Source: Candidatus Saccharimonadia bacterium (GTDB taxonomy: Bacteria > Patescibacteriota > Saccharimonadia > UBA4664). From it: 64,000 nucleotides of DNA. The stretch lies in NCBI GenBank assembly GCA_041743505.1, contig JBGTMQ010000021.1:521-64520 (forward strand). Direction: 5' to 3'. Positions 18,172 through 55,810 of the stretch are shown piece by piece. Numbering within the stretch: the first letter of the stretch is position 1; each line of letters opens with the position of its first letter. The notes below the pieces were generated by a model. It saw only the letters and a program-made list of their open reading frames with translations. It was not told the DNA's origin and made no database searches. A program made the position numbers and the translations under genes.

Positions 18172-18576
18172 TCAGGTAAGATCTTTATTTATCTTTGTGT
18201 ACTCTTTCACGTTACCAGCAAAACGTGTTAAAAAATCAGCTATAGTTTCAAGTTCTTTGTCTGTATAACTAGCTATTAGTTCATCTTGTCGTTTCCGAAT
18301 ACCCGCAAGCATTGGCCTGAGTATTTCCGCTAAATTCTGATTAACCTCAATCAGCACACCGCGTCTGTCTTTCGGGTTTGGTTTCCGTTTGATGAGCTTA
18401 GCTTTCTCTAACCGGTCAAGCATTGCCGTCGTTGAGCCAGTAGTGAGGCCGGTATGGCGGGCAAGTTCTGTAGGGGTTGAGATACCCTTAAGAAATAGGA
18501 GGTCAAGGCACTCCATATCAGCAACGTTCAGGCCTAGCTTTCTACTTGTTGCATTACGAAGTAAAACAGAGCACAT
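18172..18576 (-). CDS. MarR-family transcriptional regulator
   Basis: wHTH ...STPTELARHTGLTTGSTTAMLDRLEKAKLIKRKPNPKDRRGVLIEV... Start ATG 18576 with GGAG 6 nt upstream; ORF extends to GTG 18633. Confidence 0.7.
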   Translation of the reverse strand: MCSVLLRNATSRKLGLNVADMECLDLLFLKGISTPTELARHTGLTTGSTTAMLDRLEKAKLIKRKPNPKDRRGVLIEVNQNLAEILRPMLAGIRKRQDELIASYTDKELETIADFLTRFAGNVKEYTKINKDLT

Positions 18577-18645
18577 ATTGTACTCCCCGAGGGCTATAAC
18601 TACTTGTATTTCTAAATCCTGCTTTGAATCCACGATAAAATCTCA

Positions 18646-20350: not shown

Positions 20351-21595
20351 TCAACATTGTGGGGCGACGTGTATCAGATTCATCTTGTAACCCCAGCTAT
20401 CCTTTAGCTGGTTGTAGGCATGAAACTGGTTGTCTTTATCGGCCTGATCAGTGGCATCAGTCCAGAATGGAGCGGCAAAGAAGTCGCCTTCATGCCACAT
20501 ATCCTGTCCGGACGGGTCTTTGTACTGACCTTCGATGCGCCACTCACCGCCCACATTCTGGGTCCAGTGCATCCATTTAGGACTCGGGACCTGAAGCTGA
20601 TCGATTGAGTTGAATTGGCGGGTGTAGAACAACACGTTGTTATGGTCGTCCGGCCTGACGAATGTCCGGTAGTCCGAACCGGATAGCCAGCACGCATCAG
20701 GCACATGCACCGGTGGAGGTGGAGGTGCAGCTTGTGTAATCGGTGCGGAATAGACTGGCGCTGGCGGTGACGACGCCTGAGTTGGCTGAGCCGGTTGCAC
20801 TGTAACAGGGATGGGCTCCGCTTTGACGACAGGTTGGGTATCGGCGACGGGTGGAGGGGGTGTGGTGACTACATCTTTCTTCGGTCCCTCATTCAAACTA
20901 CATGGCTCGTACCATACCCGGAGGCCAACCATGCTATAACTCAGACCCACTCCTGCCAAATTGGCGCGCCATATATCGTTCAGGTCTGGGTCATCGGTAA
21001 GCTTGTAAATATCGCCAAGCCGCGCCAGCGCATCAACTCGCGTGAGAATCTGGTTGAGGTTATCACCCTTTGGGATCGTAACCCCAATACAGTCATCTTT
21101 AGCCAGAGCCTCATAGAGAGGGTCGAAAAAGCCAACAAAACTCGCGCCATTCAATGCCTTGAATGCGGCATCTCGAAGGCCTGCGGGTTTTATAGATGAA
21201 ATTACCACATCACTTAGTAGCTTGATGCTTCTAGCCTGTGCTTCAACGCGCGCTTCTGTGGCGGCGATACGAGTACCAATCGCAGCACTGGCTATGAGCA
21301 CGTTAACTTTTGTTGCGATTTCCGTGCCCTTGCGGTTAAAACGGACTTCTACTCCGCTAGGTCCAGTATAAAAATGGCCCCACTGAGTGTACGTTGGCTT
21401 ACCGTCTGCTTGGATTGGAATCTTGTCTGAGTTAGGTATCTGGTGATTAATGATCTGAGTGTAGGGATCATCGAATCCCAGACCAGTAGTGCCTCCGCCC
21501 GGATCTGCAATAACGTTGCTTCTGCTGATCAAAGCAGTGATCGCAATAACGACCACAAGGACTACCCCAAAAATGCTAAGCCTGCGCCAATACAT
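20351..21595 (-). CDS. membrane-anchored/secreted protein with proline-rich linker
   Basis: N-terminal TM anchor (LSIFGVVLVVVIAITALI). Central PPPPV...APPPPPVHVP low-complexity linker. C-terminal globular domain. Confidence 0.5.
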   Translation of the reverse strand: MYWRRLSIFGVVLVVVIAITALISRSNVIADPGGGTTGLGFDDPYTQIINHQIPNSDKIPIQADGKPTYTQWGHFYTGPSGVEVRFNRKGTEIATKVNVLIASAAIGTRIAATEARVEAQARSIKLLSDVVISSIKPAGLRDAAFKALNGASFVGFFDPLYEALAKDDCIGVTIPKGDNLNQILTRVDALARLGDIYKLTDDPDLNDIWRANLAGVGLSYSMVGLRVWYEPCSLNEGPKKDVVTTPPPPVADTQPVVKAEPIPVTVQPAQPTQASSPPAPVYSAPITQAAPPPPPVHVPDACWLSGSDYRTFVRPDDHNNVLFYTRQFNSIDQLQVPSPKWMHWTQNVGGEWRIEGQYKDPSGQDMWHEGDFFAAPFWTDATDQADKDNQFHAYNQLKDSWGYKMNLIHVAPQC

Positions 21596-22259: not shown

Positions 22260-22664
22260 TTAGGATTCCTTCTGGCCCGAAAACCAGCTTGGATAAGCCT
22301 TTGGTAGAAGGTCTGTGATCTTCACTTTTTGAACGACACCGCCAAATTCAGTAATCACAAAAATGTTGGGGGCATAGTCAAGAAGTAGCTGACGACAAAC
22401 ACCGCAGGGCGGTATGACGCCGCGATCATTGTTGCCTACGGCCACAATGGCGGTAAAATTCTTCTTCCCTTCGCTAATTGCTTTGCCCAAAACAATTAGC
22501 TCCGCATCAGCTCCTCCCCCTTGAGCAAATATATTCACGCCAGTATAGATCGTTCCATCACTGGCCAGCGCCGCTCCGACGGTATGAAGCGAATCATCGC
22601 CATATTTATCAATAATAGTTTGAGCAGCTTTTATCAGGTCTTTATCATGAGTGGTTAATTCCAT
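22260..22664 (-). CDS. cytidine/deoxycytidylate-deaminase-family protein (blasticidin-S-deaminase-like)
   Basis: Zinc-binding PCGVCRQ motif and small size of 134 aa. Confidence 0.55.
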   Translation of the reverse strand: MELTTHDKDLIKAAQTIIDKYGDDSLHTVGAALASDGTIYTGVNIFAQGGGADAELIVLGKAISEGKKNFTAIVAVGNNDRGVIPPCGVCRQLLLDYAPNIFVITEFGGVVQKVKITDLLPKAYPSWFSGQKES

Positions 22665-22709: not shown

Positions 22710-23201
22710 CTAGATTATGTCAAATGTTTGGACGGGGCCGTGCCAAACTTCAGTATTTAATGCGACTTCCTTGAACTGTCCTTGGGTAATCTTGTTGATC
22801 ACTTTCCGCCAAAAGCGTGTTGCCAGATCGTTTGCTTCCATTTGCGCAACCTCCCATCTGCCGGGAAATTTTGCGAATGTTAATGCTGCCGCCCGCTCCC
22901 CCACTCCGTTTTGTCGAAACGTTGGAGCAACATAAAATTCGGCGATGGAGTGAGCCTGAATTTGAGTAATAGTAAGGGTGTTTACCAGAACGAAGCCACC
23001 TATTTCGTGGTTAACCATTATGAAGAATGCCGCCCGTTCGGAGTCGGTAAAATAATCTGGTAAATATTTATAGGTTTTGATTTCATTCGGGCTATTACCG
23101 CTATAAGGGAGAAGCTCGCGCTGGTACTCGTAGAGAAGTTGAGACAGAATGTCACTGTCCTTTTCGTCTATGGTCTTAAGGCTGACGGTTGCGGTTTGCA
23201 T
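22710..23201 (-). CDS. GNAT-family N-acetyltransferase
   Basis: ...FRQNGVGERAAALTFAKF... acetyl-CoA-binding motif (Q/RxxGxG/A). Confidence 0.6.
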   Translation of the reverse strand: MQTATVSLKTIDEKDSDILSQLLYEYQRELLPYSGNSPNEIKTYKYLPDYFTDSERAAFFIMVNHEIGGFVLVNTLTITQIQAHSIAEFYVAPTFRQNGVGERAAALTFAKFPGRWEVAQMEANDLATRFWRKVINKITQGQFKEVALNTEVWHGPVQTFDII

Positions 23202-23986: not shown

Positions 23987-25261
23987 CTAAGAAGTCGGTA
24001 AATTGAAGGTCGGCATTTCACTCTGTCCAATCTGGACGTTGCCCTGATATCCAGGATGCTGAATAAGCTCACAATTGCACGTGGGGCTGAAATACGTGGT
24101 TTGACCGGGCGATATAATTCTTGCGGGTGCTTCCCAGCCGATAGAAGCCAGAAAGACACCTGCAACGTGTGACTTTCGTTTCTGACCGTGCTGCTTTTGT
24201 AACACATATGCAGCAGCAGTTTTGAGAATAGCGAAAGACTCTGGGGATAAGGAATAAGCACCGATTGTGACGATGCCAGTTGACGATGGGTCCAATTGAC
24301 CCTTCTTAGATGACGCAGCCTTGTCAAGCTGCAATTCAATCTCCTTTACCGCTTGACTGTATTCAATTGGCTGTTTCTTTGGTGCTCGGAACGCCTGAGG
24401 AGTTTTGAGCTCGATACCGACATATTCAGTCAAGGAAGGCCGCAAACGCAAATCAGGTATACGGCCATCTCCGTGCTCTCCATAGACAATTTCAACCCCA
24501 TTGCCTGAGTCGGTGAGATAACTTGCGACAAGTAAAAGCATAGTTGTGTGACGAACTTCATCAACATCTGTGATCGCTTGAATGAGTTCTGGAAAAGCCG
24601 GGTGATTTTTCCAACGTCGAAACAGTACAACATCCCAAAGCAACTCCGCAAGAACATCACCGTCAATAGTAATCATATTGCTTGATTCGTCGTTTGATTC
24701 CATATTGTTGGCCAATGTATCTGCCTCTTCAATCAACACGATGAGTGGGTGACGCTTGGATGGTGGCGTCTTCGATGCCTTGCCGGCAAGATCAGACTTT
24801 TGCAGCTTTTCGTAACGTACGCCCAGCAACTCACGGATTTCCTGTGCGAATTCCCGTAACGCAGTAGGATCAGTCTTCACTCCCTCGCCTGCAATTCCGA
24901 TCCCCACTTCTGTGGAGTAGTCTGCCAAGGTTTGCTCACTGATAAGCGAAGCGTGTGCGATGTTAATTGTGTCCGAGATGAGAAATCGGCCTGGTGGTAC
25001 AACAGCGGCAGCAGGAATTGCTTGACCAGGTGGTCGCTTCGGTGCAATACCGATGACTTCACATTTTGGACATCGAATACCAAGATCAAAGAGCTGACCG
25101 ACATATAGGTCGATAGCAAGAACGGTATCACATCCTGGGCAAAGCCAATCAATCCCAGCTTTGTTAGTACCGGCGAATAAAGGTGCCAATGTTGGATTAA
25201 AAATACCGACGTCATCTCCTGACCCGTCTAGAAGACTCAAATGCTGCTGTGTACTGCCCAT
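23987..25261 (-). CDS. hypothetical protein with N-terminal C4 zinc ribbon; possible PD-(D/E)xK nuclease motif
   Basis: CPGC...CPKC near the N-terminus. ...GRIPDLRL...YVGIELK... resembles a PD...ExK active site. Inference only. Confidence 0.4.
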   Translation of the reverse strand: MGSTQQHLSLLDGSGDDVGIFNPTLAPLFAGTNKAGIDWLCPGCDTVLAIDLYVGQLFDLGIRCPKCEVIGIAPKRPPGQAIPAAAVVPPGRFLISDTINIAHASLISEQTLADYSTEVGIGIAGEGVKTDPTALREFAQEIRELLGVRYEKLQKSDLAGKASKTPPSKRHPLIVLIEEADTLANNMESNDESSNMITIDGDVLAELLWDVVLFRRWKNHPAFPELIQAITDVDEVRHTTMLLLVASYLTDSGNGVEIVYGEHGDGRIPDLRLRPSLTEYVGIELKTPQAFRAPKKQPIEYSQAVKEIELQLDKAASSKKGQLDPSSTGIVTIGAYSLSPESFAILKTAAAYVLQKQHGQKRKSHVAGVFLASIGWEAPARIISPGQTTYFSPTCNCELIQHPGYQGNVQIGQSEMPTFNLPTS

Positions 25262-25562: not shown

Positions 25563-26045
25563 GTGTTTAGCTTTTTGCATCGACATAAGCCGTCCCCTGC
25601 CGGTCTACTAACTTCGCAGCTATTTAATGACGCCACGTTCTATCCAGCCTTTGTCCACGACTTAAATCGATGCCGTATTGAGGCGATCATTGAGAGCCCG
25701 TTTATAACGACAAAACGCGCTGCTTTTCTTGCTCCTGTATTAATGAGTCTTAAGCGGCGCGGCGTTAGAGTAATTATTAACACCCGTGATCCCAATGAGC
25801 ACGAGACGCACATGCGTATTCAATCCCGAATGGCGGTCGAGGAGTTCCAGCAGGCAGGCGTTCAGGTTCTGTATACGGACAAACACCACAGGAAGCTGGC
25901 TATTCTGGATGGCGAAATTTTATGGGAGGGCAGCCTTAATATTCTCTCCCAAAATGACAGCTGCGAAGTTATGAGGAGGGTTGAGTCTGCAGGGCTAGCT
26001 ATGCAGATGCTACAGTTCGTGAAACTAGATAAATTCTTAAGATGA
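25563..26045 (+). CDS. phospholipase-D-like (HKD) nuclease, Nuc-like
   Basis: Single HKD motif: HRKLAILDGEILWEGSLNILSQND matches HxK(x)4D(x)6GSxN. GTG start. Confidence 0.65.
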   Translation: MFSFLHRHKPSPAGLLTSQLFNDATFYPAFVHDLNRCRIEAIIESPFITTKRAAFLAPVLMSLKRRGVRVIINTRDPNEHETHMRIQSRMAVEEFQQAGVQVLYTDKHHRKLAILDGEILWEGSLNILSQNDSCEVMRRVESAGLAMQMLQFVKLDKFLR

Positions 26046-32680: not shown

Positions 32681-35287
32681 ATGGAGACTATCACCGAGTA
32701 TTCGCTAGACATCCTATCCTCACTGCTGCCTGTGGTAGTAGTCTTCCTCGTGGTGATTCTGCTCATAGGGCTCGCCGTAGCGGTATTATTCCGCATCTTG
32801 ACCCTCCGTCGTCTATTCCGGCAAAAGTGGGTATTTTTAGAGCTTACGCCCCCAGCACAGACTGATAAATCACCGGAGGCTACTCAGCAATTATTCTCGG
32901 TTTTGCATGGATTGGACTCGGTACGCTCGCATAAAGATACCCTCCTACGGCGAAAGGAAGTATTCTCGCTTGAGGTTGTCTCGACCCGAGAGCAAGGCAT
33001 CCGCTACATAATCCGAGTTTCGGAGCATGAGGCGCCAATATTCGAGCAGACAATTGCCTCATATCTGCCGGAAGTCCGCCACAGGCGTATTAAGGATTTT
33101 CTGCCGGAGTCGTTTAGAAGCGGCGCCGTTCGTGTGCTCGATTTTAAACAGATGGGTCACTTCGCCTATCCATTACAAAAACAATGGTCGCTCAATGAGC
33201 ACGACCCTATCGCCTACCTAACCGGTACTATGACCAAGCTCGCAGCTAACGAAATGGTCGTGTTCCAGATTGTCGCTTCACCTACCAGAGTCCGCGAGGC
33301 AGAAGCAATTGCGGGGCGCATTCTCAACAATGCCGAATTGCTGCACAGGCTTGGTAAGCGGGGGCTGCCCGGCATTGGCGGCCTGTTTGCGGCTATCAAC
33401 TTAGTACTGTTTGGCACCCTGGAATCCATTAGTGAGCTTTCCCGTAGTTCACCGACACATGCGGGTCAGACCGGTGGCCGCGATGTCCAGCGTGAGCGTG
33501 ATGTGGCGATGAGAATCAAGCCGGCACGTACGCTGAGCGCTTTTGAGCAGCAGTTGGCCGAATCGGTGCATGACAAGGTGAGTCAGCCTCTTTTTCGGAC
33601 CAATATACGCGCATTGGTAGTAACGGCGAGCCCCCAAAACCGGGCGCAGAGACTTAAGGGCATACAGGCCTCGCTCATGTCCTTGAGCCTGCCCAAGTAC
33701 CAGTCGCTTAAGGCGCGTTATGACTTTCCATATTTCATCAGGGGTAGATTGAACACCTTTGCATTCCTCAGCCGCCTGCCGTCCCCGCTGCCGCTCAAAT
33801 CGGTTTTGCTTTCTGCGTCTGAAGTTGCCAATATATATCACTTCCCTTTTAGCCTAACGGCTAAGACCGAGAACGTAGTGCGGTCACTTAGCCGGACGCT
33901 TCCGGCACCTATTTCACTCAAGGGCAAGGCTGAGTTCGACGTCGTCTTGGGTCGGAATCATCATCACGGCACTACTACCGATATCGGCCTGACTGCCGCC
34001 GAACGCGAGCGCCATGTTTACGTGCTCGGAGGCACCGGCAACGGTAAGACTACGATGCTCGAGTATTCAATTGTTCAGGACATTCAGAGCGGCAAAGGCG
34101 TTGCCGTTGTCGATCCACACGGTGATCTAGCGGAGAAACTTTTGCGCTTTATCCCCGAGAACCGCATCAAGGACGTCATTTACTTTAATCCGGCGGATTT
34201 AAAGTATCCGGTTGGGCTGAACTTGCTTGAGCTACCGGAAGGTTTGTCCGGCGACGAGCTTATCGACGCCAAAGACTTTATAACTGAGGCAATTATTTCA
34301 ATAATGCGAAAGATTTTCTCGGATGACGATACGGGCGGACACCGCATTGAGTATGTTTTGCGAAATACGGTGCAAACGGCACTAACAGTGAAAGATGCGA
34401 CCCTGTTCACCGTTTTCGACTTGCTGACCGATTCGAAGTACCGAAAGAAGATTGTTAAAACACTCGAAGATGAGAAATTAAAGAACTTCTGGAAGGAGGA
34501 AGTCGGCAAAGCCGGCGATTTCCAGCGTGTTAAGATGTCGGCTGGCGTGACGGCCAAGATTGGGCGGTTCCAGTTCTCGGCCTCCGCAGAGCGCATCTTG
34601 AGCCAGCCAAAGTCTACAATTAATTTCGAAGAAATACTCGACGGCAAAATTCTGATCTGCAATTTCGCCAAGGGGTTGATCGGCGAAGACACCTCCGAGC
34701 TGTTTGGTATTAGCACGCTAGCAAAGCTGCAGCTGGCGGCATACCGTAGAGTGAAGCAGAAGCGAGCAGACCGGAAACCGTTCTATCTCTACGTGGACGA
34801 GTTTCAAAACTTTGCCACGATGTCTTTTGTGCAGATGCTGTCTGAGGCACGAAAATATAGAGTCTTCTTGACGATGGCCGAGCAGTCCACATCCCAGCAG
34901 GACGACCAGCGCATGGTTAATACGATCTTAGCTAATGTTGGGACAGTTGTTTGTTTTCGGTCGGGGAGCCCGGCCGACGAGCAGCTTATCCTTCCCCTCT
35001 TTTCGCCCTATATCCAAGAGGGCGAGATCGCCAACCTTGCTACCTATAATTTCTACGCGCGGATATCGGCCGTGTTGTCTCAAGAGCCTGTTTCGGGCGA
35101 GACGCTATTGCTGGAGAACTCCGGCAGCGAAATGATCGCACAATCGGCCATTAGCGCGTCGCGCGCAAATTATGCCCGGCAGCACAAACCAACTGTTAAT
35201 GTGACGGACGCTAGGCCCGCCACGACAAAGCGAAAACCAAAAAAGCCCATTGCCGCGAGCCAGACCACGGCTCTACCAGGAGACTAG
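32681..35287 (+). CDS. type IV coupling protein (VirD4/TraG/TcpA-like ATPase)
   Basis: N-terminal TM segments. Walker A VLGGTGNGKTT, Walker B YLYVDEFQNF. 868 aa. Confidence 0.7.
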   Translation: METITEYSLDILSSLLPVVVVFLVVILLIGLAVAVLFRILTLRRLFRQKWVFLELTPPAQTDKSPEATQQLFSVLHGLDSVRSHKDTLLRRKEVFSLEVVSTREQGIRYIIRVSEHEAPIFEQTIASYLPEVRHRRIKDFLPESFRSGAVRVLDFKQMGHFAYPLQKQWSLNEHDPIAYLTGTMTKLAANEMVVFQIVASPTRVREAEAIAGRILNNAELLHRLGKRGLPGIGGLFAAINLVLFGTLESISELSRSSPTHAGQTGGRDVQRERDVAMRIKPARTLSAFEQQLAESVHDKVSQPLFRTNIRALVVTASPQNRAQRLKGIQASLMSLSLPKYQSLKARYDFPYFIRGRLNTFAFLSRLPSPLPLKSVLLSASEVANIYHFPFSLTAKTENVVRSLSRTLPAPISLKGKAEFDVVLGRNHHHGTTTDIGLTAAERERHVYVLGGTGNGKTTMLEYSIVQDIQSGKGVAVVDPHGDLAEKLLRFIPENRIKDVIYFNPADLKYPVGLNLLELPEGLSGDELIDAKDFITEAIISIMRKIFSDDDTGGHRIEYVLRNTVQTALTVKDATLFTVFDLLTDSKYRKKIVKTLEDEKLKNFWKEEVGKAGDFQRVKMSAGVTAKIGRFQFSASAERILSQPKSTINFEEILDGKILICNFAKGLIGEDTSELFGISTLAKLQLAAYRRVKQKRADRKPFYLYVDEFQNFATMSFVQMLSEARKYRVFLTMAEQSTSQQDDQRMVNTILANVGTVVCFRSGSPADEQLILPLFSPYIQEGEIANLATYNFYARISAVLSQEPVSGETLLLENSGSEMIAQSAISASRANYARQHKPTVNVTDARPATTKRKPKKPIAASQTTALPGD

Positions 35288-35372: not shown

Positions 35373-36731
35373 TTACTGACCCGCCTGTATCGATCCACGA
35401 GCAAATGCCTCAAGGATCCTTTTGCTCGGGAAATCGGAGAGCGATATGAGGCGGTTAGCTAAAGCAACAGGGATCAATGCGTTATCGTACATTGAACATC
35501 GCAGCTCACCAAGAACGGAAAGAACGCTCGTAAGATTGTGGAAGTCTGCATACGATGGGTTCGGTGAGTATTTACTCATCGGAACAGTCGCCACATAAAC
35601 ATTACCGTCTTTAGCTTTGTATATAAACTTTCCTCCCCAGTAAGTGTTGCTACCGTAAGCATCGGGGCCCTTAGGATCACCCGGCACAATGTATTTATAG
35701 ATATATTCGTTAGACAGAAGCAAGACCGAGCCTGGTCGCATTTGACCCTCGATTAGCATAGCGTGTTCAACGAATGGCCCACTCTTTTCTAGGCCCGCCG
35801 CGTTGAGAAGAGGAGGCTCACTCGGCTGGTTCTCTTGGACTCCTAAGAATTCAGCCAACTCCCGCATGGGCTTCGACAATGGCGCCGTCTGACCAAAGAA
35901 GGCCAATGGGCCGTCTTTGATAAATAATACCTCCCGCAGAAGGCTAGGCTTAAGCTCCCACAATGTCTTGATGAGGTGCACTAGCACAATCTGCTCTAGC
36001 ATTGTCATTACATAGCTGGTGATACCACCCGCTCCCTGCTCTTCATCTATTCGTTCATGCAACCGCAGGGCGTCCACAAGATAGATCGGCGCTCCGCAAG
36101 TTGTACAGGCTTGTTCGTCGGGCGAGTCATTTGAGAGCACAATATATGTCCGCGTACAGCCGACATTCGGACAGGACGGTATATCCCAGGTTTTGGCGCC
36201 GTCTGGTTTCCAGCCTCTAAATAAAATCCATCTTAATGCTTCAGATAAGGGCTTCTCTTCATCTTGGGCCTTTGTGAAGAAATCATGCAGGCTTGAGCGT
36301 ACGGAGTCGATGAGTGATTGACTAGCACGGGAAATGTTTTTAGTCGGGAGTACAAGCGTATAGCGCTGGATATTTTTAAGCTTTGCTAAATCCTCAGGGG
36401 CAATGAACGGCTGATTATCGAGTTCACGTAATTCCTCAAGCTTAAAAAGCAAGGGACCGAAAGCAAAAAAGGTTATTACGGATGATGGAAATTCGTTCCG
36501 GACAGCGGCCTCCCTATAGCTTCCATCAACAGCAACAACTGCTTTGATTTTCTGATCCTCGACCTCTGGTACATCCTGTATAAGAGCTTCTAGGACGGAT
36601 TTTTCTGCTGCTTTTGGCACCGTGCAGCCGTCCAGAAATGCTTGAACGGTTGGGTTATTAATAATATTGCTATGGGATATTTTGCTCGCCCTCTCCATGG
36701 GCTTGCGCCCTTTGGCGCTACCATATGCCAT
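35373..36731 (-). CDS. NurA-like nuclease with inserted C4 zinc ribbon
   Basis: NurA motif KAVVAVDGSYRE. CPNVGC...CTTCG ribbon. ATG overlaps the HerA stop (TAATG). Confidence 0.55.
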   Translation of the reverse strand: MAYGSAKGRKPMERASKISHSNIINNPTVQAFLDGCTVPKAAEKSVLEALIQDVPEVEDQKIKAVVAVDGSYREAAVRNEFPSSVITFFAFGPLLFKLEELRELDNQPFIAPEDLAKLKNIQRYTLVLPTKNISRASQSLIDSVRSSLHDFFTKAQDEEKPLSEALRWILFRGWKPDGAKTWDIPSCPNVGCTRTYIVLSNDSPDEQACTTCGAPIYLVDALRLHERIDEEQGAGGITSYVMTMLEQIVLVHLIKTLWELKPSLLREVLFIKDGPLAFFGQTAPLSKPMRELAEFLGVQENQPSEPPLLNAAGLEKSGPFVEHAMLIEGQMRPGSVLLLSNEYIYKYIVPGDPKGPDAYGSNTYWGGKFIYKAKDGNVYVATVPMSKYSPNPSYADFHNLTSVLSVLGELRCSMYDNALIPVALANRLISLSDFPSKRILEAFARGSIQAGQ

Positions 36732-38698
36732 TAAACGGCCTCGGCTTGTGCTTCACTTTTTGGAGCTTCGGCCACAATAACCTTAAATTGATCCACTTGT
36801 ATCGGGACGATGAAGGTATTCGAGTCAGTTTTAAGCCGGATAAAGCCTCGATCGGTTGTTCGGCGGAGGCTGTCGGTGAAGTCTTCAAAGTCGTAATACT
36901 TATTGAGCTCACGAAGTTCATCTTGGTTGTTGAGATGAGAAACGAACCAGTTCTGAGTGTTTTTGAGAATACTTCCGGAAATAGAGCTGACTTCCTGGGT
37001 CGCATAGCACAGGCCAAGTCGTAGCTTCTGGCCTTCTTTCGCTAGGCGGTTATAGATATTGGTGAGATCTTTTTCTTCTTTACGCGGGAAAAGGTTGTGC
37101 GCTTCTTCAAAATACATTTGTATGAAGTTTGCGGGTTCGTTATCGATGAACCTCTTCATGGCTTCGCCGAAGATCTTTTTACATACACGGTCGGAGTATA
37201 CCCGTTGTATGTGCGGATCACCCTGTGAAAGATCTATAAGAACGATTTTGCCGGATCGCAAAAGTTCCACTATCTCGTCCTCAAAGGATTCTCCAATGGT
37301 GGCCGTGTGGAGGTCACGCCCTTTAATAAATTTTCTATACCCGCTTTCGCTTGAGTTTGCACCCGGCCTGGATTTTCGAGTAAGAAACCGCATCAAGGTT
37401 TGAAGATCTTCTTCGGCCCATTCGCGTCCGCCCTTCGACTTCTTCAGTGCCTGGAATGGACCGCCCGAGTCAGCGTAATTGTCCCATGCGGCGCTAAACC
37501 AAGCGGCTGCATCGTCTAGGCTTAAGCCCGACTTGGGCTCGACTCCTTTCAGGCCGGGAATCTCTGACTCTCTGATCTCTTTGGCGGAATCGAAATACAC
37601 TTTTTCATCGGTCTGAGCAAAGCCCGCCTTGAATAGACACGCCTTGTATGCCGCAATTTTCCGTTTATATTTAATCGTCGCCCCAACGTCTTCGTTGTCC
37701 GGCTCTTCCCAGTCTATGTTCAAGAAAGCCTTAACGTAATCGGCGGTGTCGTCAGCAAGTAGAGTGGAGAGCAAACCGAACCCATCTGTTACCGACTTAT
37801 AAAAGTTCAGTTTCATTACCTTGAAGCCTGTTTTTTCCATAACACTGTAGCGGGTTACTTCGTTTGGGTACTGCTGGAAAATCGCCGTGCCGTCGTCCTG
37901 CTGGTTGGTATTTGCGTACTCGCCATTTATGTCGAAAACAATTTGGCCTACGGGCTTCACGGGGGCGCCATTCATCGGAGCGCCCGAATTTGATATGCCC
38001 ACAGTCGCCTGGATAATCTTTTTTACGGAGTTGGATTTTCCAGTTCGGGTCATTCCAAATAGTGCAGTTCTTTTACCGAGGAAATCGATTGGAGTGACAA
38101 ATACTGGCACATCTTCGCCGGAAAGGTGTCGCTGGCTTGAACTATAGCGAATTTTGCCAATCCGCTCGTCGCCTTTACCGCCTGGTATTCCCTGCTCTCT
38201 GAAGTTGACGATGTATTCGAGCAACTTACCCGTTGGCTTGATCACCTCATAGCTATTAGGGGCGTAAAAGTTATCCAAATCTCCAGCGAATTTTACATCA
38301 CCAGCGTCATTGCGGTAAAAAGAGCCGATAACCCGACATTCCAACCCCGAATACTGAAACTCTGCGCGGGTGTAGGAATCGAGCTGAGAGCCGGCGGATT
38401 GTTCCTTGTAATGGTCAACCATTGCGGCAACAACGTCATCGTCCGTAGGGAGACGCGTAGGACGAAGGACACGAACTAAGATCGCTTCATCTATCCCGTC
38501 TTCAGCGGTGTACCGGCAGAGTAGAAAAGCTCCCGCAGGGACACCGCTAACTTTTCGTTTCCAGCTATCGTTTGACAGGAGTTTCAGTGTGTTGAAGTCG
38601 AGATAGAATGGGCGCCCGACAAATGCATCTTGTTTTTTGGCCTCAGCGAATAAGTCCACCGTGGCTAGTTGTTTGAGTTCTTCGATTACAGAAGCCAC
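36731..38698 (-). CDS. HerA/FtsK-like ATPase (DUF87-type)
   Basis: Walker A LFGMTRTGKSN, Walker B KIVLIDLSQGD, C-terminal QEVSSISGSILKNTQNWFVSHL typical of HerA. 655 aa. Confidence 0.65.
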   Translation of the reverse strand: MASVIEELKQLATVDLFAEAKKQDAFVGRPFYLDFNTLKLLSNDSWKRKVSGVPAGAFLLCRYTAEDGIDEAILVRVLRPTRLPTDDDVVAAMVDHYKEQSAGSQLDSYTRAEFQYSGLECRVIGSFYRNDAGDVKFAGDLDNFYAPNSYEVIKPTGKLLEYIVNFREQGIPGGKGDERIGKIRYSSSQRHLSGEDVPVFVTPIDFLGKRTALFGMTRTGKSNSVKKIIQATVGISNSGAPMNGAPVKPVGQIVFDINGEYANTNQQDDGTAIFQQYPNEVTRYSVMEKTGFKVMKLNFYKSVTDGFGLLSTLLADDTADYVKAFLNIDWEEPDNEDVGATIKYKRKIAAYKACLFKAGFAQTDEKVYFDSAKEIRESEIPGLKGVEPKSGLSLDDAAAWFSAAWDNYADSGGPFQALKKSKGGREWAEEDLQTLMRFLTRKSRPGANSSESGYRKFIKGRDLHTATIGESFEDEIVELLRSGKIVLIDLSQGDPHIQRVYSDRVCKKIFGEAMKRFIDNEPANFIQMYFEEAHNLFPRKEEKDLTNIYNRLAKEGQKLRLGLCYATQEVSSISGSILKNTQNWFVSHLNNQDELRELNKYYDFEDFTDSLRRTTDRGFIRLKTDSNTFIVPIQVDQFKVIVAEAPKSEAQAEAV

Positions 38699-38713
38699 AC
38701 TGCGGCCCTTTGT

Positions 38714-39934
38714 TTAGTTTCTGAGGCTGGGCTTGTCCCAATCGAGGGTAATCGCTTCCGGAATGCTCACTTTGTGTGGGCTCATTAACAGAAGCCGATC
38801 AGTCTTTGTGGCTCGTCCAATATTATTCTTCCAAATGCGGCTAACTTTGACGCCAAGCGGCAACTCATCGGCAATAATACTATGAAGATACCACCCTTGA
38901 GGCTCGGCCGCTAGTTCCCAAACGGCTTTGGCAAGGTTAATATGTTCATCGTTGCGTCGAACATCTCCAATAACCAAGCAGACATAGCCATCATCAGCCA
39001 CAACTTCGCGCATTTGTAGCAAGAATGCGCTCATGAATTCGATGTAACGAGCCATGGAGCTACTTGCCATAAGGGTATCATCAACGGCCTTTGCCTCTTG
39101 GCCCAGAAGCCACAGCCGTACCCAGTTATATTTTCCATATTTTATAACCTCTAGGTACGGGGGGGAGGTTAATACCAATTTAACTTTCTCTTTGCGCAGC
39201 CAGGCGGGCGCAATGGCCGTGGCGTCTTGCTGCCAGCTCTTACCTCCGTGAATGGGCCGCTCAGGTAAATCAAATCTCTGGATTTTCAATCGCAGCATTT
39301 CAAAAACATTGACTTCAGGTTGAGTTAATCCGTGCTCCGATATATAGCGCCTAACATACGCTGGCGACATCGCGAACGTATTCGGCATACTTATGGAAAA
39401 GCCTCGCGCCTCACCGCTTTTAGTGTGGTTAGCATGCATCGTACCAAGTGCAGAGGCGAGTATGAAATTATCTACAAAGCTATTTACATTGAGCTCCGAT
39501 TTCATGAAGACGAGTTGGCGTAGGGTGTCGGCGCTATAAAGCATTGCGATATCCGGTGGCGTGTTAGAAATATCGACAGTAGCGTCTTTAAGTATGCTGA
39601 TTAAATTATCTAGCCGTTGGTTTAGTTGTTTTTGTGATGGAATATCAAGCTTTGCTTTCGTCAGTACTGTCGCCATCGGGTTTAGGTCACTCGCATAAGC
39701 TTTTCGGTCTAACATTATTGCTTCTAGCGCCGATGTCCCACGTCCCGAAAACGGGTCGTAAATTGTTTCGCCCTGGGATGTTAGCCAAGCAATAAGGTAA
39801 TGCGCTAACTGCGGTGGGAACATGGCGAAATAACTGCACATACTGTGTAATGGGTGGCCCCAGCGCCTTGGTACCACCCGCCAATTCATCGGAATGGCGT
39901 CTAGCGATACTTTTGACTCCAAAATTGTGCTCAT
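38714..39934 (-). CDS. DNA methyltransferase (N6-adenine/N4-cytosine type, SPPY motif)
   Basis: AdoMet motif I DPFSGRGTS and catalytic motif IV TSPPY (LVLTSPPYLEV) with an intervening target-recognition region. Confidence 0.7.
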   Translation of the reverse strand: MSTILESKVSLDAIPMNWRVVPRRWGHPLHSMCSYFAMFPPQLAHYLIAWLTSQGETIYDPFSGRGTSALEAIMLDRKAYASDLNPMATVLTKAKLDIPSQKQLNQRLDNLISILKDATVDISNTPPDIAMLYSADTLRQLVFMKSELNVNSFVDNFILASALGTMHANHTKSGEARGFSISMPNTFAMSPAYVRRYISEHGLTQPEVNVFEMLRLKIQRFDLPERPIHGGKSWQQDATAIAPAWLRKEKVKLVLTSPPYLEVIKYGKYNWVRLWLLGQEAKAVDDTLMASSSMARYIEFMSAFLLQMREVVADDGYVCLVIGDVRRNDEHINLAKAVWELAAEPQGWYLHSIIADELPLGVKVSRIWKNNIGRATKTDRLLLMSPHKVSIPEAITLDWDKPSLRN

Positions 39935-39970
39935 GCTTGTATCTTCTTATACTGAGCTCGGGATAGCAAA

Positions 39971-40465
39971 TTACTCAATTATTGAGATCTCATACTTTAT
40001 GAGTGACCGAGGGTATGGCATTTGAGAGGTAATTCTATGTGTCATTTTCTCGTCTACGACAGCGATAATGTACATAGTGCTGCAAGCTGGCGGGAAAGCG
40101 GCGGCGGCATCAGGCGTTACCATAACTACTCTAGCCTCAGGTTCGTCAAGGGGATTCTCCGTGAATTGAAGCGTCTGCATATAAGCGATTTGTCGCGAGA
40201 ATTCGATAAGCTTCTCAGTGTCGCTATCGTTAGTTGCAGCGCGTTTTACAAGAATTTGATGCATCATTCGCCGCCATCGCTTCTCGACTAGCGCCAATAG
40301 CTCACCAGGCTTTCCGGCTACGACATATTCGGCCCCACCAAGCCGGTGGCGCATATATAGACGCTGGGCTATATCGCGAGCAATATTTTGTATGCCGAAT
40401 ATTTTGGGCCGTTCAAAGTAATTGCCAGGTTCATACTCCCCCTCCAGCGACTGGATTACTGTCAT
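39971..40465 (-). CDS. hypothetical protein, first gene of the MTase-HerA-NurA operon
   Basis: 164 aa, co-directional, 37-nt gap to the MTase. Confidence 0.45.
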   Translation of the reverse strand: MTVIQSLEGEYEPGNYFERPKIFGIQNIARDIAQRLYMRHRLGGAEYVVAGKPGELLALVEKRWRRMMHQILVKRAATNDSDTEKLIEFSRQIAYMQTLQFTENPLDEPEARVVMVTPDAAAAFPPACSTMYIIAVVDEKMTHRITSQMPYPRSLIKYEISIIE

Positions 40466-40480
40466 TATCTACTATTACTC

Positions 40481-40559
40481 TTACTAATAGTTCTCATCAA
40501 GAAAAGCGTAACATAATTATCCAACTATTAGTATCACTAAGTGTTACTAAGACTAATAA
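40481..40559. promoter_or_regulatory. operator-like direct repeats (T/C)TACTAA in divergent promoter region
   Basis: ttactaa at 40481-40487, cactaa at 40535-40540, ttactaa at 40544-40550, actaataa at 40552-40559, between the defence operon start and the XRE gene. Confidence 0.35.
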
Positions 40560-40577
40560 TTCTTTACGCTTGAGTTC

Positions 40578-40808
40578 ATGACGAGAGAAGCATCAGAATC
40601 TAGGTATTTGGCCGCTTTTGGTAAGCGAGTTGCAGAAGTTCGCCGCGACAAAGGCTTCACTCAAGAGTCGTTGGCCGAGAAAGCCGGCGTTACGGCGTTA
40701 ACGATCAGCTACATTGAGCAGGGCCGACAATGGCCGCGCATTGCAACGTTATACAAAATAGCAAATTCACTTGGCGTGGCCGTACAGGAGTTATTTCGCG
40801 GGATTTAA
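40578..40808 (+). CDS. XRE-family HTH regulator (controller-protein-like)
   Basis: GFTQESLAEKAGVTALTISYIEQGRQWPRIATLYKIANSLGV. Divergent from the MTase operon. Confidence 0.7.
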   Translation: MTREASESRYLAAFGKRVAEVRRDKGFTQESLAEKAGVTALTISYIEQGRQWPRIATLYKIANSLGVAVQELFRGI

Positions 40809-41026: not shown

Positions 41027-42265
41027 TTAGAGGTTCGCGCTAGCCTTGGTTTCAACGCCCGAAATTGATAGTAAATATTGGCGATCCTTCGTAAGACTCG
41101 ACTGCAAAAGTGCGAAACCTACCTTCCCGAATTCTGAGATAAGTTCGAGGGCCGTCATATGCCAAACACGGAGCAACAAAATTGTTGCACCTTTCTCAAG
41201 ATCAACCGTGCGTTCAGCCTTGCCAAAATCAAACTTGATAGTTATGGCGGATCTAAGCCTCACGCGGATGTAACGCATCCCTTGAACCGAGTCAAAGCCC
41301 ATCTCGACATCGTATAGCGACTCATCAATATTCATGAGTCCTAGAATATATTGGTGGCTCGGCGATAGCTTGTTCAGACCTGAGGTCGAATTGAAGTCGA
41401 AATATCTGCGTGCCGCTTCAGTGTCAGGCTTATCGGTGTACATAAGCAAATCGTTATCGCTCATGCTTCCATATACTGGCTTGAGCACATCGTTAAACGA
41501 TCTGAAATTAACAGGCGTGCCGCCGAGCAAGAGGATGAGATTGGTCGTCTCCCTCGCATCATCGTCTAACATGTCGTCTACTAAGAGATCGTCGAAGCGC
41601 TCGTAAGAAATGTCGCGCACATATCCCTCAAAATTGACCTTATCGCCGTACCATTCTATAAGGTTGCGCTTCGCCACTGAGATCATGGAGGGACTTATAT
41701 CGATTGCGATATACCTATGAAGAATCTGTTTATCAATGAGATGCCCCAGTAACTCCTTGATGGGGTACGCGTTGCCCACGCCAAGATCGATAACATTGAC
41801 CCTTTTACTCCCCTCAAGTAGCTTATCAATTGCCGCCATATTTGAGCGGATAAGTTCAACTGTACCTTTAAGGATATTGGACGACTCTTCTTGCGCTAGT
41901 CTTTTGAGCCAATTATCCCAATTGATCGCACCGTCTTTCAGATAATTGTACTGACGCGGAATCTCCCCGTGGACATTGAGGCTTGTGATAATATCTAAAA
42001 TTTGGCGGCGGCTGTATATGTCGTAGAACTCAGGCTTCGGTCGAATTATCTTATGATAAAGCGTATTTCGGTACTTCTTGCCCTTTTCAGACAGCTGTTT
42101 GAGAACCAGTATATTCTCGGGCGTATTTGCTATATAGGTACGGTTGTCCGTCTTGTGTAGCTTCAACGCTACCTTGCCCTGTTTCGCTGCATCTATCCAG
42201 TTATGAACTGTTTTTAAGGAAACATGGTAAATGTCAGTCAATTCGGAATGTTTAAAGTGTTGCAT
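41027..42265 (-). CDS. HTH domain fused to EgtD-like (histidine N-alpha-methyltransferase family) SAM-dependent methyltransferase
   Basis: N-terminal HTH (ELTDIYHVSLKTVHNWI), then VIDLGVGNAYPIKELL...YIAIDISPSMISVAKRNL resembling the ELGSGxxxKTxxLL...Y.P.DIS... pattern of EgtD-family enzymes. Confidence 0.5.
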   Translation of the reverse strand: MQHFKHSELTDIYHVSLKTVHNWIDAAKQGKVALKLHKTDNRTYIANTPENILVLKQLSEKGKKYRNTLYHKIIRPKPEFYDIYSRRQILDIITSLNVHGEIPRQYNYLKDGAINWDNWLKRLAQEESSNILKGTVELIRSNMAAIDKLLEGSKRVNVIDLGVGNAYPIKELLGHLIDKQILHRYIAIDISPSMISVAKRNLIEWYGDKVNFEGYVRDISYERFDDLLVDDMLDDDARETTNLILLLGGTPVNFRSFNDVLKPVYGSMSDNDLLMYTDKPDTEAARRYFDFNSTSGLNKLSPSHQYILGLMNIDESLYDVEMGFDSVQGMRYIRVRLRSAITIKFDFGKAERTVDLEKGATILLLRVWHMTALELISEFGKVGFALLQSSLTKDRQYLLSISGVETKASANL

Positions 42266-42312: not shown

Positions 42313-42864
42313 TTATTTTATATAACCGAGGTCCCGAGCCGAATGCCACGCGATTAAGAGGGATGGGTCAATTATCTCTTGCTTGCGGATCATTTCGTCG
42401 AGCTTTTGGACGGGCACAAGCACCTTCTCAACAACCTCAGATGGGTCATCTAGTTTCAGCTCCGAGACCTCAAAGTCGTCGCAATAAAAAAGGTGAGCAG
42501 CCCAGTCCGCACGGCCCGGGTTTGGGTAGAAGCTAGCAAGCTTGACTAGTGACTTTGGTCGAATTCCAACCTCCTCCCGGCATTCGCGGATTGCAGCCTC
42601 CTGGATATCTTCGTTCGCAGGAGAACCGCCCCCAGGAAGGTCATAAATCCATCGGTTTAAGGGGAACCGGAACTGATGTGTCAGTACGATCTGATTGTCC
42701 GGCGTCTTAATGAGCACTGCGACTGCTTTCCCGTCTGAATGTTCAACTTCATACTTAGTGTGTTCGCCATTTGCTAGAACAGCCTCATGCTCGACGACAT
42801 GAAGTCGACCTTTGTAGGCAGTCTTTTCACTCAATCGTTGCCATACGGGGTATCTGTCAGCCAT
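42313..42864 (-). CDS. NUDIX hydrolase (ADP-ribose pyrophosphatase-like)
   Basis: Nudix box GGGSPANEDIQEAAIRECREEVG. Confidence 0.7.
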   Translation of the reverse strand: MADRYPVWQRLSEKTAYKGRLHVVEHEAVLANGEHTKYEVEHSDGKAVAVLIKTPDNQIVLTHQFRFPLNRWIYDLPGGGSPANEDIQEAAIRECREEVGIRPKSLVKLASFYPNPGRADWAAHLFYCDDFEVSELKLDDPSEVVEKVLVPVQKLDEMIRKQEIIDPSLLIAWHSARDLGYIK

Positions 42865-53658: not shown

Positions 53659-53968
53659 CTAGAAGCTATTGATTGAGGCGTTATCGCCCCGATATATGCT
53701 TTATTTTAGCACAATTGCCTTGCCTGAAATCGAAGGTAAATCCCTTGCCTCTATACCTATAGATATAGTAAACTATATTCATAGGTATAATAATGCTACG
53801 CGGGGGGCGATATGGGGCGCACAAAGGGCTCAAAGAATAAGAGCGAACTGGTGAGGCCTACGACCTCCGCTCTGACCTCGGAGGGCAGAATTCAATTTCT
53901 AGCAAACCTCATGATTGATCGGGTACTTGGCGACCCAGGCGATCCAAGTAAGAAGGCGGAGGCCTACG

Positions 53969-55711
53969 ATGAATGATTTCCCGCCAAAGGAAAATGGTGT
54001 TGCAGCAATCCGCGTGTCTTCCGTCAAGCAAGGTACTGAGGGCGACTCGCCGGAGGCTCAAAAAGAGCAAATGGCGCAGTTTTTTATGTCTCAAAATCTC
54101 AATCTGAAGAAAGTGTTTATCTTTTTGGAGTCGGCTTCGAAGGACGAGCAGCCGATGCAGGAGGCCATCGACTACTGCAAGGACCCCAAGAACGATATTC
54201 AAGTTTTTGTCATAAAATCGATCGACCGTTTCACTAGGGGTGGCTCCTACTCTTATGATTTCCTTAAGATGCAGCTTGAACGATACAACGTAAAGCTCGT
54301 CGATATATACGGCATAATTAGTTCGCAAAAGATCAACACTTTGGCCCATTTAGGTGTCGAGTATAAGTGGAGTGTGTTTTCCCCCTCTAAGAAGTCCGAA
54401 ATACTTGAGGCTGAGCGTGCTAAAGACGAGATGCGCGATATTATGAGCCGCATGATCGGTGCAGAGATCCGCTACGCCCGTATGGGGTACTGGATACGCA
54501 GAGCGCCCTACGGCTTTGACACGGATAAGCTAGAGACATCGAATGGTAAACGCTGCATTCTGAGGCCAAATGCCTCAGAGGCGCCGTTTGTTATTAAAAT
54601 GTTTGAGCTGAGAGCCCGGGGCACCTTAACGGATGAGCAAATAGTCGAGGAAATCAACCGGCTCGGATATAAATCCAGACTCAAGAAAAAGCGAGATAAG
54701 CACGACAAGACTACGATTGTCGGGCAAACGGGCGGAAATGAGCTTAACCTGAAGCACTTCCTTAAGTTTGTTCAGTACCCCATATACGCCGGCATAAATA
54801 CGGAGAAATGGACACAAGGAAAGGCGACAAAATGTAAGTTTGAGGGTCTCGTCTCGATTGATCTCTTCAACGCCGCAAATAAAGGCAAGCTGACAATCGT
54901 GGAGGAGAACGGTGAAGTGGCGCTCTATAGAATAAGGCCGCCAGAGTACCGCATAACCAAGGGTGTAAAAAATCCCGAGTTCCCTTATAAGAAATATGTC
55001 ATGTGCCCGACCTGCGAAAAGCCCCTTTATGGGAGCGCATCCAAGGGTAGATTAGGCAAGTACTATCCTGCCTATCATTGTAATAGCCGCGGTCACTACT
55101 TTAGGGTGCCATCCAGAGACTTCGAAGAAACGATTACTAAGTTCGTGAAAAATCTTCAAGTCTCGCCGGAATATATTGATGCACTCGTGGAGGCCGTCGT
55201 AACGGAATGGGAGAAGCGTGAAAAGGAACTTCATAAGGACGACGTAAATATTGATGCCCGCATTGCTGAGCTGAAGGCTCAGGCGCGAATGACGGCCGAT
55301 AAAATTCGCTTTCTGAATTCAGAAGTAGCGATTAAGTATATTGAAGAAGACTTGCTAAAAATAGAGGGGCAAATTGCTATGCTGATTGCAGAAAAAGCTA
55401 ACGCGACGGTTCAAGAACCCATAAATATAAGGGTCATTATGGAGAAGGTAAAATATTTTCTGGAACACCTAGATGAACTGCTACTCTACCAGATCAATCC
55501 ACTCGCAAAAGCAGCTTATTTTGGGGTTATTTGGGACAAGGCTCCAACGTACCAGGAAATACTTTCTGGAACCCAAGATTTATCCCTCTGCGAAGGGCTA
55601 AATGAAGTGTTTAAACTTAAGAATATGGAAAATGATTCAATGGTGGGCCATCAGGGACTCGAACCCTGGACACGGAGATTAAGAGTCTCCTGCTCTAACC
55701 AACTGAGCTAA
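53969..55711 (+). CDS. large serine recombinase (integrase)
   Basis: Resolvase N-terminal catalytic domain AAIRVSSVKQ...DSPEAQ, recombinase domain, Cys-rich zinc ribbon (CPTCEK...CNSRGH), coiled-coil. GGAGG upstream of ATG 53969. 3' end overlaps the antisense tRNA-Lys. Confidence 0.75.
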   Translation: MNDFPPKENGVAAIRVSSVKQGTEGDSPEAQKEQMAQFFMSQNLNLKKVFIFLESASKDEQPMQEAIDYCKDPKNDIQVFVIKSIDRFTRGGSYSYDFLKMQLERYNVKLVDIYGIISSQKINTLAHLGVEYKWSVFSPSKKSEILEAERAKDEMRDIMSRMIGAEIRYARMGYWIRRAPYGFDTDKLETSNGKRCILRPNASEAPFVIKMFELRARGTLTDEQIVEEINRLGYKSRLKKKRDKHDKTTIVGQTGGNELNLKHFLKFVQYPIYAGINTEKWTQGKATKCKFEGLVSIDLFNAANKGKLTIVEENGEVALYRIRPPEYRITKGVKNPEFPYKKYVMCPTCEKPLYGSASKGRLGKYYPAYHCNSRGHYFRVPSRDFEETITKFVKNLQVSPEYIDALVEAVVTEWEKREKELHKDDVNIDARIAELKAQARMTADKIRFLNSEVAIKYIEEDLLKIEGQIAMLIAEKANATVQEPINIRVIMEKVKYFLEHLDELLLYQINPLAKAAYFGVIWDKAPTYQEILSGTQDLSLCEGLNEVFKLKNMENDSMVGHQGLEPWTRRLRVSCSNQLS

Positions 55712-55717
55712 TGGCCC
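55641..55717 (-). tRNA. tRNA-Lys (anticodon CTT), CCA encoded
   Basis: Hand-folded cloverleaf. Acceptor GGGCCAT/ATGGCCC, D-arm GCTC..GAGC, anticodon stem GGAGA/TCTCC with loop CTCTTAA, T-arm CAGGG-TTCGAGT-CCCTG, discriminator A plus CCA. Confidence 0.85.
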
Positions 55718-55734
55718 GCATGATTGTAAACGCC

Positions 55735-55810
55735 TGGTGCGCCCGGAGGGACTCGAACCCCCGACACCGTGGTCCGAAGCCACGTGCTCTATCCACTGAG
55801 CTACGAGCGC
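55735..55810 (-). tRNA. tRNA-Arg (anticodon TCG), CCA encoded
   Basis: Acceptor GCGCTCG/CGGGCGC (one G-T wobble), D-arm GCTC..GAGC, anticodon stem CGTGG/CCACG with loop CTTCGGA, T-arm GGGGG-TTCGAGT-CCCTC, ACCA 3' end. Confidence 0.8.

Follow-up and report, generated by a model that had tools for sequence, protein, structure and literature searches.

The window analysed here is a 64,000-nt stretch of contig JBGTMQ010000021.1 from a Candidatus Saccharimonadia bacterium; all coordinates below are window positions unless a locus number is given, and the analysis is computational. The window contains a compact minus-strand cassette (Table 1) in which a DNA methyltransferase (MTase) gene is followed by genes for a HerA-like ATPase and a NurA-like nuclease, with a small orphan open reading frame (ORF) on one side and, beyond it, a gene for an XRE-family helix-turn-helix (HTH) protein. 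The four co-directional minus-strand genes match the ORF list exactly as an original prediction, made from the letters of this DNA, had placed and spaced them: the HerA stop and the NurA start (ATG) overlap by 1 nt, 15 nt separate HerA from the MTase gene, 36 nt the MTase gene from the 164-aa ORF and 112 nt this ORF from the XRE gene. The GC content of the stretch in which the cassette lies is 0.44-0.52, compared with 0.58-0.59 in its flanks. Comparison with related loci identified the MTase, HerA and NurA genes as a conserved and mobile unit, which is probably a restriction-modification (R-M)-like module.

Table 1. Genes and sequence features of the cassette region (window positions)
Feature	Position	Strand	Description
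NurA-like nuclease gene	35373-36731	-	452 aa
HerA gene	36731-38698	-	655 aa, GTG start
DNA methyltransferase (MTase) gene	38714-39934	-	406 aa
Orphan ORF	39971-40465	-	164 aa; co-directional with the MTase gene and upstream of it
Divergent intergenic region	40466-40577		112 nt, 29% GC, operator-like repeats
XRE-family HTH gene	40578-40808	+	76 aa, divergent from the cassette
Terminator-like hairpin and T-run	35244-35261	-	112 nt downstream of the NurA stop (pattern scan)

Related loci were gathered from a collection of one genome per species (37 loci), from metagenomes (79 loci) and, for a few, by exact look-up, and gene linkage was counted in those 75 that extend 3.4 kb or more upstream of NurA. 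HerA adjoins NurA in 74 of these 75 loci and the MTase gene lies directly upstream of HerA in 70; in locus L102 it is located just downstream of NurA. The pairwise-identity matrices of the three proteins, computed from 60 non-identical trios, correlate with r = 0.87-0.92, and the MTase therefore co-diverges with the motor and the nuclease. The HerA and NurA genes are translationally coupled: in 53 of 68 loci they overlap by 1 nt or are separated by 0-3 nt. Linkage of the three genes extends to distant relatives. Plasmid pDF308 of Deferribacter desulfuricans (L124, 4126-7924) carries intact MTase (33% identity) and NurA (31%) genes together with a HerA gene split by the tnpA-tnpB genes of an IS200/IS605 element, a decay pattern typical of R-M systems, and an archaeal plasmid from Halorarius encodes HerA, NurA and MTase proteins, each about 30% identical to those of the window, in a different gene order. 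These two MTases, both encoded beside HerA-NurA, are the two best full-length matches to the window MTase among 72,556 plasmids. All-against-all clustering of the flank ORFs revealed no fourth conserved partner, the only recurring sequences being shadow ORFs and some integrases; since, in addition, neither the 164-aa ORF nor the XRE gene is conserved, the conserved unit comprises three genes. MTase-HerA-NurA is thus one co-inherited three-gene unit. The original prediction had proposed a four-gene cassette with a controller and had made co-conservation of the MTase with HerA-NurA its own test: the MTase is indeed kept with the pair (70 of the 75 loci, co-divergence, linkage at 30-33% identity), but the larger composition has to be abandoned, the 164-aa ORF being without homologues and the XRE gene not being kept beside the trio.

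The three domain assignments of the original prediction all lie above the Pfam thresholds in profile searches. The MTase matches N6_N4_Mtase (PF01555) with 65.8 bits (cut-off 26.7) and, over its full length, the PADLOC model MTase_II (PDLC03325, 3.6e-37). Its motif I (DPFSGRGTS, residues 60-68) precedes motif IV (TSPPY, residues 256-260) by about 190 residues, a permuted order that is opposite to that of the beta-class enzyme 2zie matched in the PDB. The pattern [TAS]SPPY is present in 63 of 63 members of the MTase family, in which DPF[SAC]GRGT is invariant. The SPPY motif is associated with N4-cytosine methylation, and because of this motif and of weak PDB matches to N4-cytosine MTases, the target is probably N4-cytosine, possibly N6-adenine. 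No hypervariable target-recognition block was seen in the MTase. A solitary relative of the MTase (26% identity, 488 aa) is encoded by a Sulfitobacter faviae plasmid (L131, 5737-7203), flanked by IS66 sequences and with no HerA-NurA nearby; it may be an orphan derived from the cassette MTase family.

The HerA protein matches Pfam DUF87 with 48.9 bits (cut-off 23.2) and PADLOC HerA models with E-values down to 3.6e-19. Its best sequence match in the PDB is TdpA (8wet_A, E = 1.1e-15), the ATPase of the TdpABC system discussed below, followed by eight other HerA-type chains, and the gene is predicted to encode a HerA-type hexameric translocase ATPase. The Walker A motif (GMTRTGKSN) spans residues 215-223 and the Walker B motif (MYFEEAHNLF) residues 528-537; GMTRTGKSN and the pattern xYFEEAHNLF are each found in 76 of 77 family members. 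The motif strings quoted in the original prediction are all present in the three proteins, and invariant or nearly so in the family, but one of them, VLIDLSQGD, had been taken for Walker B and must be reassigned: alignment to TdpA pairs it with VVILDLPSLG and pairs MYFEEAHNLF with VLEEAHNFL, which is why we reject the earlier assignment.

The NurA-like protein matches Pfam NurA (PF09376) with 31 bits (cut-off 21), only positions 2-139 of the 254 profile positions being covered. It presents an RNase H-like core with D69 (in VVAVDGS), D273 (IKDGPL) and E322/H323 (VEHA), into which a Cys4 zinc ribbon (C187, C192, C209 and C212) is inserted. Five residues (D69, D114, D273, E322 and H323) vary little or not at all within the family and are candidate counterparts of the Mn-binding D/E/D/H of solved NurAs, and the patterns xxAxDG[GS], [IV]KDGPL, VEHA and the Cys4 ribbon are invariant, including in the variants without an MTase described below. 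A search of PDB sequences with the NurA alignment profile returned no NurA match and only fold comparison succeeded: the AlphaFold model (predicted local distance difference test (pLDDT) score 80.9, predicted template modelling score (pTM) 0.83) has an RNase H-like NurA fold, and two structural searches both place it closest to TdpB, the nuclease partner of TdpA (8wfd_G with Foldseek, E = 1.7e-7). Catalytic motifs thus appear intact in all three proteins.

The family has a patchy distribution. We found 37 matches among 185,579 species genomes, distributed over many phyla, with hosts that include soil Actinomycetota, Chloroflexota and Myxococcota as well as cyanobacterial plasmids, a Vibrio prophage and a haloarchaeal plasmid. 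Streptomyces boetiae DSM 44917, Nonomuraea aurantiaca and Catenulispora rubra DSM 44948 are among the cultured carriers of the trio. Clustering of the NurA-like family at 90% identity gives more than 1,297 clusters; at 50% identity there are 962 representatives, of which 301 have E <= 1e-30. The proteins are nearly all 440-490 aa long. Its carriers are integrative and conjugative elements (ICEs), including those of the actinomycete type (AICEs), plasmids, integrase-flanked islands and a temperate phage. Among the genes nearest to the 31 genome loci are mobility genes (tyrosine integrases, pSAM2-type RepSA, TrwC relaxase) and defence genes (AbiEii, Type ISP, ResIII helicases, PDC-S48), and other loci are accompanied by FtsK/SpoIIIE genes of AICEs, transposases and a NACHT protein. 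The latter, of 1031 aa, is encoded on a metagenomic contig (L043, 10726-13821), where it flanks the trio together with an IS110 transposase and a DDE transposase. A pattern scan of IMG/VR viral contigs gave no match, and tblastn against GenBank phages gave two Vibrio prophage records. No Mre11 or Rad50 gene was found among the neighbours of related loci.

In the window, the neighbours of the cassette are a type IV secretion system (T4SS) gene set, encoding a pilin, PrgI, TraC-like and VirB4-like proteins, a CHAP hydrolase and a coupling protein whose gene is convergent with NurA; a relative of the cassette with 87% identity keeps this convergent coupling-protein neighbour. The original prediction had described the cassette as cargo beside a T4SS coupling protein on mobile DNA. 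The T4SS genes are confirmed, and with relatives residing on ICEs, plasmids, islands and a phage, we conclude likewise that the cassette is cargo on mobile DNA. Further along the window, a plus-strand ORF (53915-55711) encodes a 598-aa serine recombinase with a Resolvase N-terminal domain and runs into a pair of minus-strand tRNA genes (tRNA-Lys, 55641-55717; tRNA-Arg, 55735-55810); recombinase and tRNA pair may represent the integrase and the attachment site used by the T4SS- and cassette-bearing element. A low-GC island of the window harbours small cargo genes for a PLD-like (Nuc-type) nuclease (25563-26045, +), a cytidine/dCMP deaminase (22260-22664, -), a GNAT acetyltransferase (22710-23201, -) and a MarR regulator (18172-18633, -), together with two ORFs without Pfam match (20351-21595, 414 aa; 23987-25261, 424 aa).

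The two genes that accompany the trio in the window appear to be local additions. The 164-aa ORF is matched by no model of Pfam, PADLOC or NCBIfam, has no homologue in 122 related loci and finds only itself among 5.8 billion proteins, and we ruled it out as a cassette member for want of any homologue in the related loci or the protein collection. Its in-frame codon score (0.132 bits per codon) resembles that of the neighbouring genes, all other frames being negative, and it is probably a real gene; its single-sequence AlphaFold2 model is unusable (pLDDT 33.8). The XRE protein matches Pfam HTH_3 with 53.6 bits (cut-off 23) and the PADLOC models HTH_VI (2e-11), capH (8e-10) and Control_protein (5e-9). 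It is likely a local transcriptional controller; as the defining controller of the family it was ruled out, since it was not found beside the trio in other loci. The repeat-bearing region of 112 nt across which the original prediction had placed this divergent gene was recovered as described. A 22-nt unit recurs in it as three loose copies, and positions 40528-40550 form a 23-bp near-palindrome, TTAGTATCACT-A-AGTGTTACTAA, which only 25 of 2000 dinucleotide shuffles equal; XRE protein and palindrome probably repress the divergent promoter in the window. The same prediction had likened this arrangement to C-protein-controlled R-M systems; the Control_protein match and the palindrome are in line with this, but the gene is divergent, lies beyond the orphan ORF and was not seen in other trio loci. 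Only the cyanobacterial variants without an MTase, described below, have a co-directional XRE gene upstream. We detected no site with the sigma-70 consensus in the intergenic region, sigma-70-like matches in the whole stretch 35373-40808 being fewer than in shuffled sequence, and no recognisable Shine-Dalgarno motif upstream of any cassette gene; initiation and promoter signals in the host may thus be non-canonical. The hairpin listed in Table 1 is possibly, on weak evidence, the end of the operon; terminator-like sites in the region do not exceed the number expected from shuffling. Immediately past the XRE gene, two further genes share the strand of the cassette and encode a 412-aa protein with a Methyltransf_33 domain (EgtD-like S-adenosylmethionine (SAM)-dependent methyltransferase) and an N-terminal extension (41027-42265, -) and a Nudix hydrolase (42313-42864, -); both are absent from all related loci.

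Several loci depart from the three-gene composition. In Streptomyces canus (L020, 1647-10410) and Archangium gephyra (L023, 1164-10350), HerA-NurA is directly preceded by PbeA and PbeC genes (PADLOC E-values down to 1e-225), with no MTase gene, and an additional small ORF without PADLOC match occupies the position of PbeD in L020. PbeA-D correspond to the HKD-helicase/CxC-ABC/DndE apparatus (PMC10853773). The association of Pbe with HerA-NurA in two unrelated phyla may represent a composite system, but this adjacency, seen in only two loci, could also be a co-location in islands. A temperate phage of Vibrio cyclitrophicus (10N.286.55.C4_PE001, PQ189371; L130, 1-6052; second record PQ189353) encodes, between its integrase and its excisionase, a HerA protein of 730 aa (36-42% identity), a NurA-like protein of 459 aa (27%) and a convergent Dam-like methylase of 286 aa with a DPPY motif; only the methylase carries a defence-type label in the phage record. 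On plasmids of Nostoc, Calothrix and Tolypothrix (L123, L126 and L127) the MTase gene is missing and HerA-NurA is directly preceded by a co-directional gene for an 82-aa XRE protein that is 41% identical to that of the window. Finally, a locus from Chloroflexia (L022) contains HerA-NurA alone.

The closest solved relatives of the window HerA and NurA proteins are TdpA and TdpB. TdpABC (An et al., Nat Chem Biol 2025, PMID 39820821) is cited in the literature as a third and recently discovered R-M system based on phosphorothioate (PT); it occurs in extremophilic bacteria and relies on tdpC alone for the modification. In the corresponding PDB entries (8wet, 8wfd and 8y1k), each with six TdpA chains, TdpA is bound to TdpB and DNA. 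Translocation and cleavage by TdpAB are reportedly inhibited by PT marks on self DNA. The cassette resembles this system in combining a modification enzyme with a HerA-like/NurA-like pair; its HerA is a TdpA-type ATPase by the match to 8wet_A, which is a distant relationship, its nuclease has a TdpB-type NurA fold, and in a reciprocal search of plasmid-encoded proteins the C-terminal segment of TdpA aligned end to end only with the window HerA family. The marker gene differs, however, being in the window a SAM-dependent methyltransferase of the PF01555 family and in Tdp the PT-forming TdpC. No PT-synthesis gene is present in the cassette or in related loci, and because TdpC is lacking the cassette is not a member of Tdp. 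The proteins are also far apart, with about 16% identity between the NurA-like protein and TdpB, only the C-terminal third of HerA aligning well, and a NurA-like protein that is about 95 residues longer and bears the Cys4 ribbon; moreover, the hosts of the window family are mesophilic soil and water bacteria, whereas Tdp occurs in extreme thermophiles. Searches for tdp loci with a TdpA fragment returned only truncated gene calls on short contigs, and no tdp locus was found among plasmids.

The second precedent is the ICEth1 operon (TTC1878-TTC1880) of Thermus thermophilus HB27, which encodes the type IIG enzyme Tth111II, a NurA-like protein of 377 aa, the HerA/FtsK hexamer TdtA and a 410-aa PF01555 methylase (PMC5365140). 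The nurA-like gene and tdtA are needed for DNA donation in transjugation, the phenotype on which that study centred, with no assay of defence (Blesa et al., 2017; PMC5365140). Compared by description only, this operon unites the same three domain families on an integrative element, but in the order NurA-TdtA-MTase after Tth111II and with a NurA-like protein of 377 aa instead of 452 aa; no type IIG gene equivalent to Tth111II lies beside the window cassette.

Other systems share fewer features. The HerA-NurA end-resection machinery of archaea and Deinococcus has the same two folds in an adjacent, translationally coupled pair, with a predicted HerA6-NurA2 processive double-stranded DNA nuclease. 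Sir2-HerA and DUF4297-HerA are mobile defence operons built around a HerA-family ATPase, and the window HerA matches their PADLOC models (1e-10 to 4e-19) and PDB chains, but its partner is NurA rather than Sir2 or DUF4297/Cap4 and an MTase is present; scores with the NCBIfam HerA_antiphage models (48 and 44 bits) are far below the equivalog cut-offs (800 and 850), and neither a Sir2 nor a DUF4297 effector is encoded next to HerA. The Pbe (CxC-ABC-DndE) system (PMC6459918; re-annotated in PMC10853773) is linked to the family by the Streptomyces and Archangium loci, in which the same HerA-NurA follows PbeA-PbeC(-PbeD), whereas the window has no Pbe genes; the idea of 'HerA/FtsK capture' put forward in PMC10853773 fits these loci, and NurA is never mentioned in that paper. 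Type II R-M systems with a C-protein likewise combine an MTase and a nuclease in one operon with a small HTH gene and a palindromic operator nearby. In the window, however, the nuclease is an ATP-motor/NurA pair and not a PD-(D/E)xK-type restriction endonuclease, and the HTH gene is divergent, lies on the far side of the orphan gene and is not kept with the trio. In PADLOC-DB v2.0.0 the NurA-like protein has no match at all, HerA and the MTase match only generic models and no system is fully matched; NCBI labels family members only as 'NurA', 'DUF87' or 'DNA methyltransferase', and none of the papers searched describes a system made up of MTase, HerA and NurA. The view of the original prediction that no system of this composition has been described agrees with the lack of a PADLOC v2 model for the NurA-like component but is overstated, the composition having direct precedents in TdpABC and ICEth1.

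We favour, with moderate confidence and largely by analogy, the interpretation of the trio as a mobile, methylation-marked, Tdp-like and ATP-dependent R-M-like module. HerA-NurA complexes degrade both strands of double-stranded DNA, and a role against foreign DNA has been proposed earlier. By analogy with the structures of HerA-NurA and TdpAB, six HerA and two NurA subunits would assemble into an ATP-driven machine that threads duplex DNA through its ring and degrades both strands from an accessible end, such as that of incoming phage or plasmid DNA. The SPPY methyltransferase, probably acting on N4-cytosine, would mark the resident DNA; this methyl mark would block or stall HerA-NurA on self DNA, as PT reportedly does for TdpAB, such that only unmarked foreign DNA would be destroyed. 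In the window, the module is cargo of a T4SS-bearing integrative element and has gained two genes, the lineage-specific orphan and that for the divergent XRE repressor. With its palindromic operator, this repressor probably sets the time of expression after transfer. As is the case for other R-M systems, the module may in addition act as an addiction module that stabilises the element on which it resides.

Several points weigh against this interpretation. The variants that lack the MTase gene (the three cyanobacterial plasmids, L022 and the Pbe-linked L020 and L023) keep their catalytic motifs, and therefore HerA-NurA is not obligatorily paired in cis with the MTase. Unlike most R-M methylases, the MTase has no hypervariable target-recognition block. 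HerA rings touch the DNA backbone, and the Tdp mark is a backbone mark, whereas the mark proposed here is a methyl group on a base, whose reading the model does not explain. The only experimentally studied operon of like composition, that of ICEth1, gave a DNA-donation phenotype (PMC5365140). For all members, the support comes from sequence and predicted structure, and the defence genes among the neighbours are a simple listing.

Some of these observations suit a different explanation, which we consider unlikely, namely that HerA-NurA is a defence effector not gated by methylation but controlled by the XRE protein or by an infection cue, in the manner of abortive infection. The MTase would then be a DNA-binding sensor or targeting subunit, a protection of the element against restriction, or an epigenetic switch. 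Such an effector would account for the intact motifs of XRE-HerA-NurA on the three cyanobacterial plasmids and of the isolated pair in L022, and for an MTase without a variable recognition block; in published work on Sir2-HerA and DUF4297-HerA, HerA is the activating scaffold. It is harder to reconcile with an MTase whose divergence closely follows that of HerA and NurA and which about 95% of the loci retain, even at 30% identity. The SPPY motif and motif I are moreover invariant, so MTase catalysis is under selection, and the nearest solved relatives, TdpAB, act in a modification-gated system.

Less probable still, in our view, is a module for donating and processing DNA in horizontal transfer, in which, as in Thermus ICEth1, the NurA-like protein and the TdtA-type ATPase process donor DNA and push it out. 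Knockout of the nurA-like gene in ICEth1 lowers transjugation by 4-5 logs and knockout of tdtA abolishes it, and the operon ends in the 410-aa PF01555 methylase (PMC5365140); the window cassette and its 87% relative abut T4SS genes, and other members reside in AICE-like elements. However, the trio accompanies at least three unrelated transfer contexts (T4SS, FtsK/TraB-type AICEs, and MOBV/MOBP or non-mobilizable plasmids), and further examples lie on a temperate phage or next to Pbe genes. Such varied carriers are better explained by portable cargo than by a component of a single transfer machinery. In addition, a coupling protein and VirB4 are already encoded by the window element itself, and a counterpart of the type IIG enzyme Tth111II is missing. 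A housekeeping HerA-NurA for double-strand-break repair, of the type known in archaea, Deinococcus and Thermus and merely adjacent to a methylase, would agree with the NCBI name 'DNA double-strand break repair nuclease NurA' and with a fold and motifs that are those of NurA and HerA, but is very improbable in view of the patchy distribution by horizontal transfer on plasmids, ICEs and a prophage, the lack of Mre11/Rad50 neighbours, the co-inherited MTase and the greater structural proximity of the NurA-like protein to TdpB than to repair NurAs.

Returning to the R-M-like module, the variants suggest a broader proposal, which we put forward tentatively and with some doubt: HerA-NurA of this clade could be a portable, modification-gated restriction engine that has been combined with chemically different self-marking modules. 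These modules may be the SPPY (m4C-type) methylase in most loci, the Dam-like methylase in the Vibrio prophage and CxC-DndE/Pbe in the Streptomyces and Archangium loci; in the distant Tdp branch, phosphorothioation by TdpC would take this place. If this were true, the family would constitute a new class of ATP-dependent R-M systems across bacteria and archaea, and the 'transjugation' operon of ICEth1 would be a member whose DNA-shredding activity feeds DNA donation.

In practical terms, the trio provides a three-gene signature that is missed by PADLOC v2. It also raises the question of how a ring translocase that grips the DNA backbone would read a methyl group on a base. If the trio is indeed R-M-like, it would be the methylation-based counterpart of Tdp, and the HerA-NurA shredder, best known from archaeal DNA repair, would be a widespread restriction engine.

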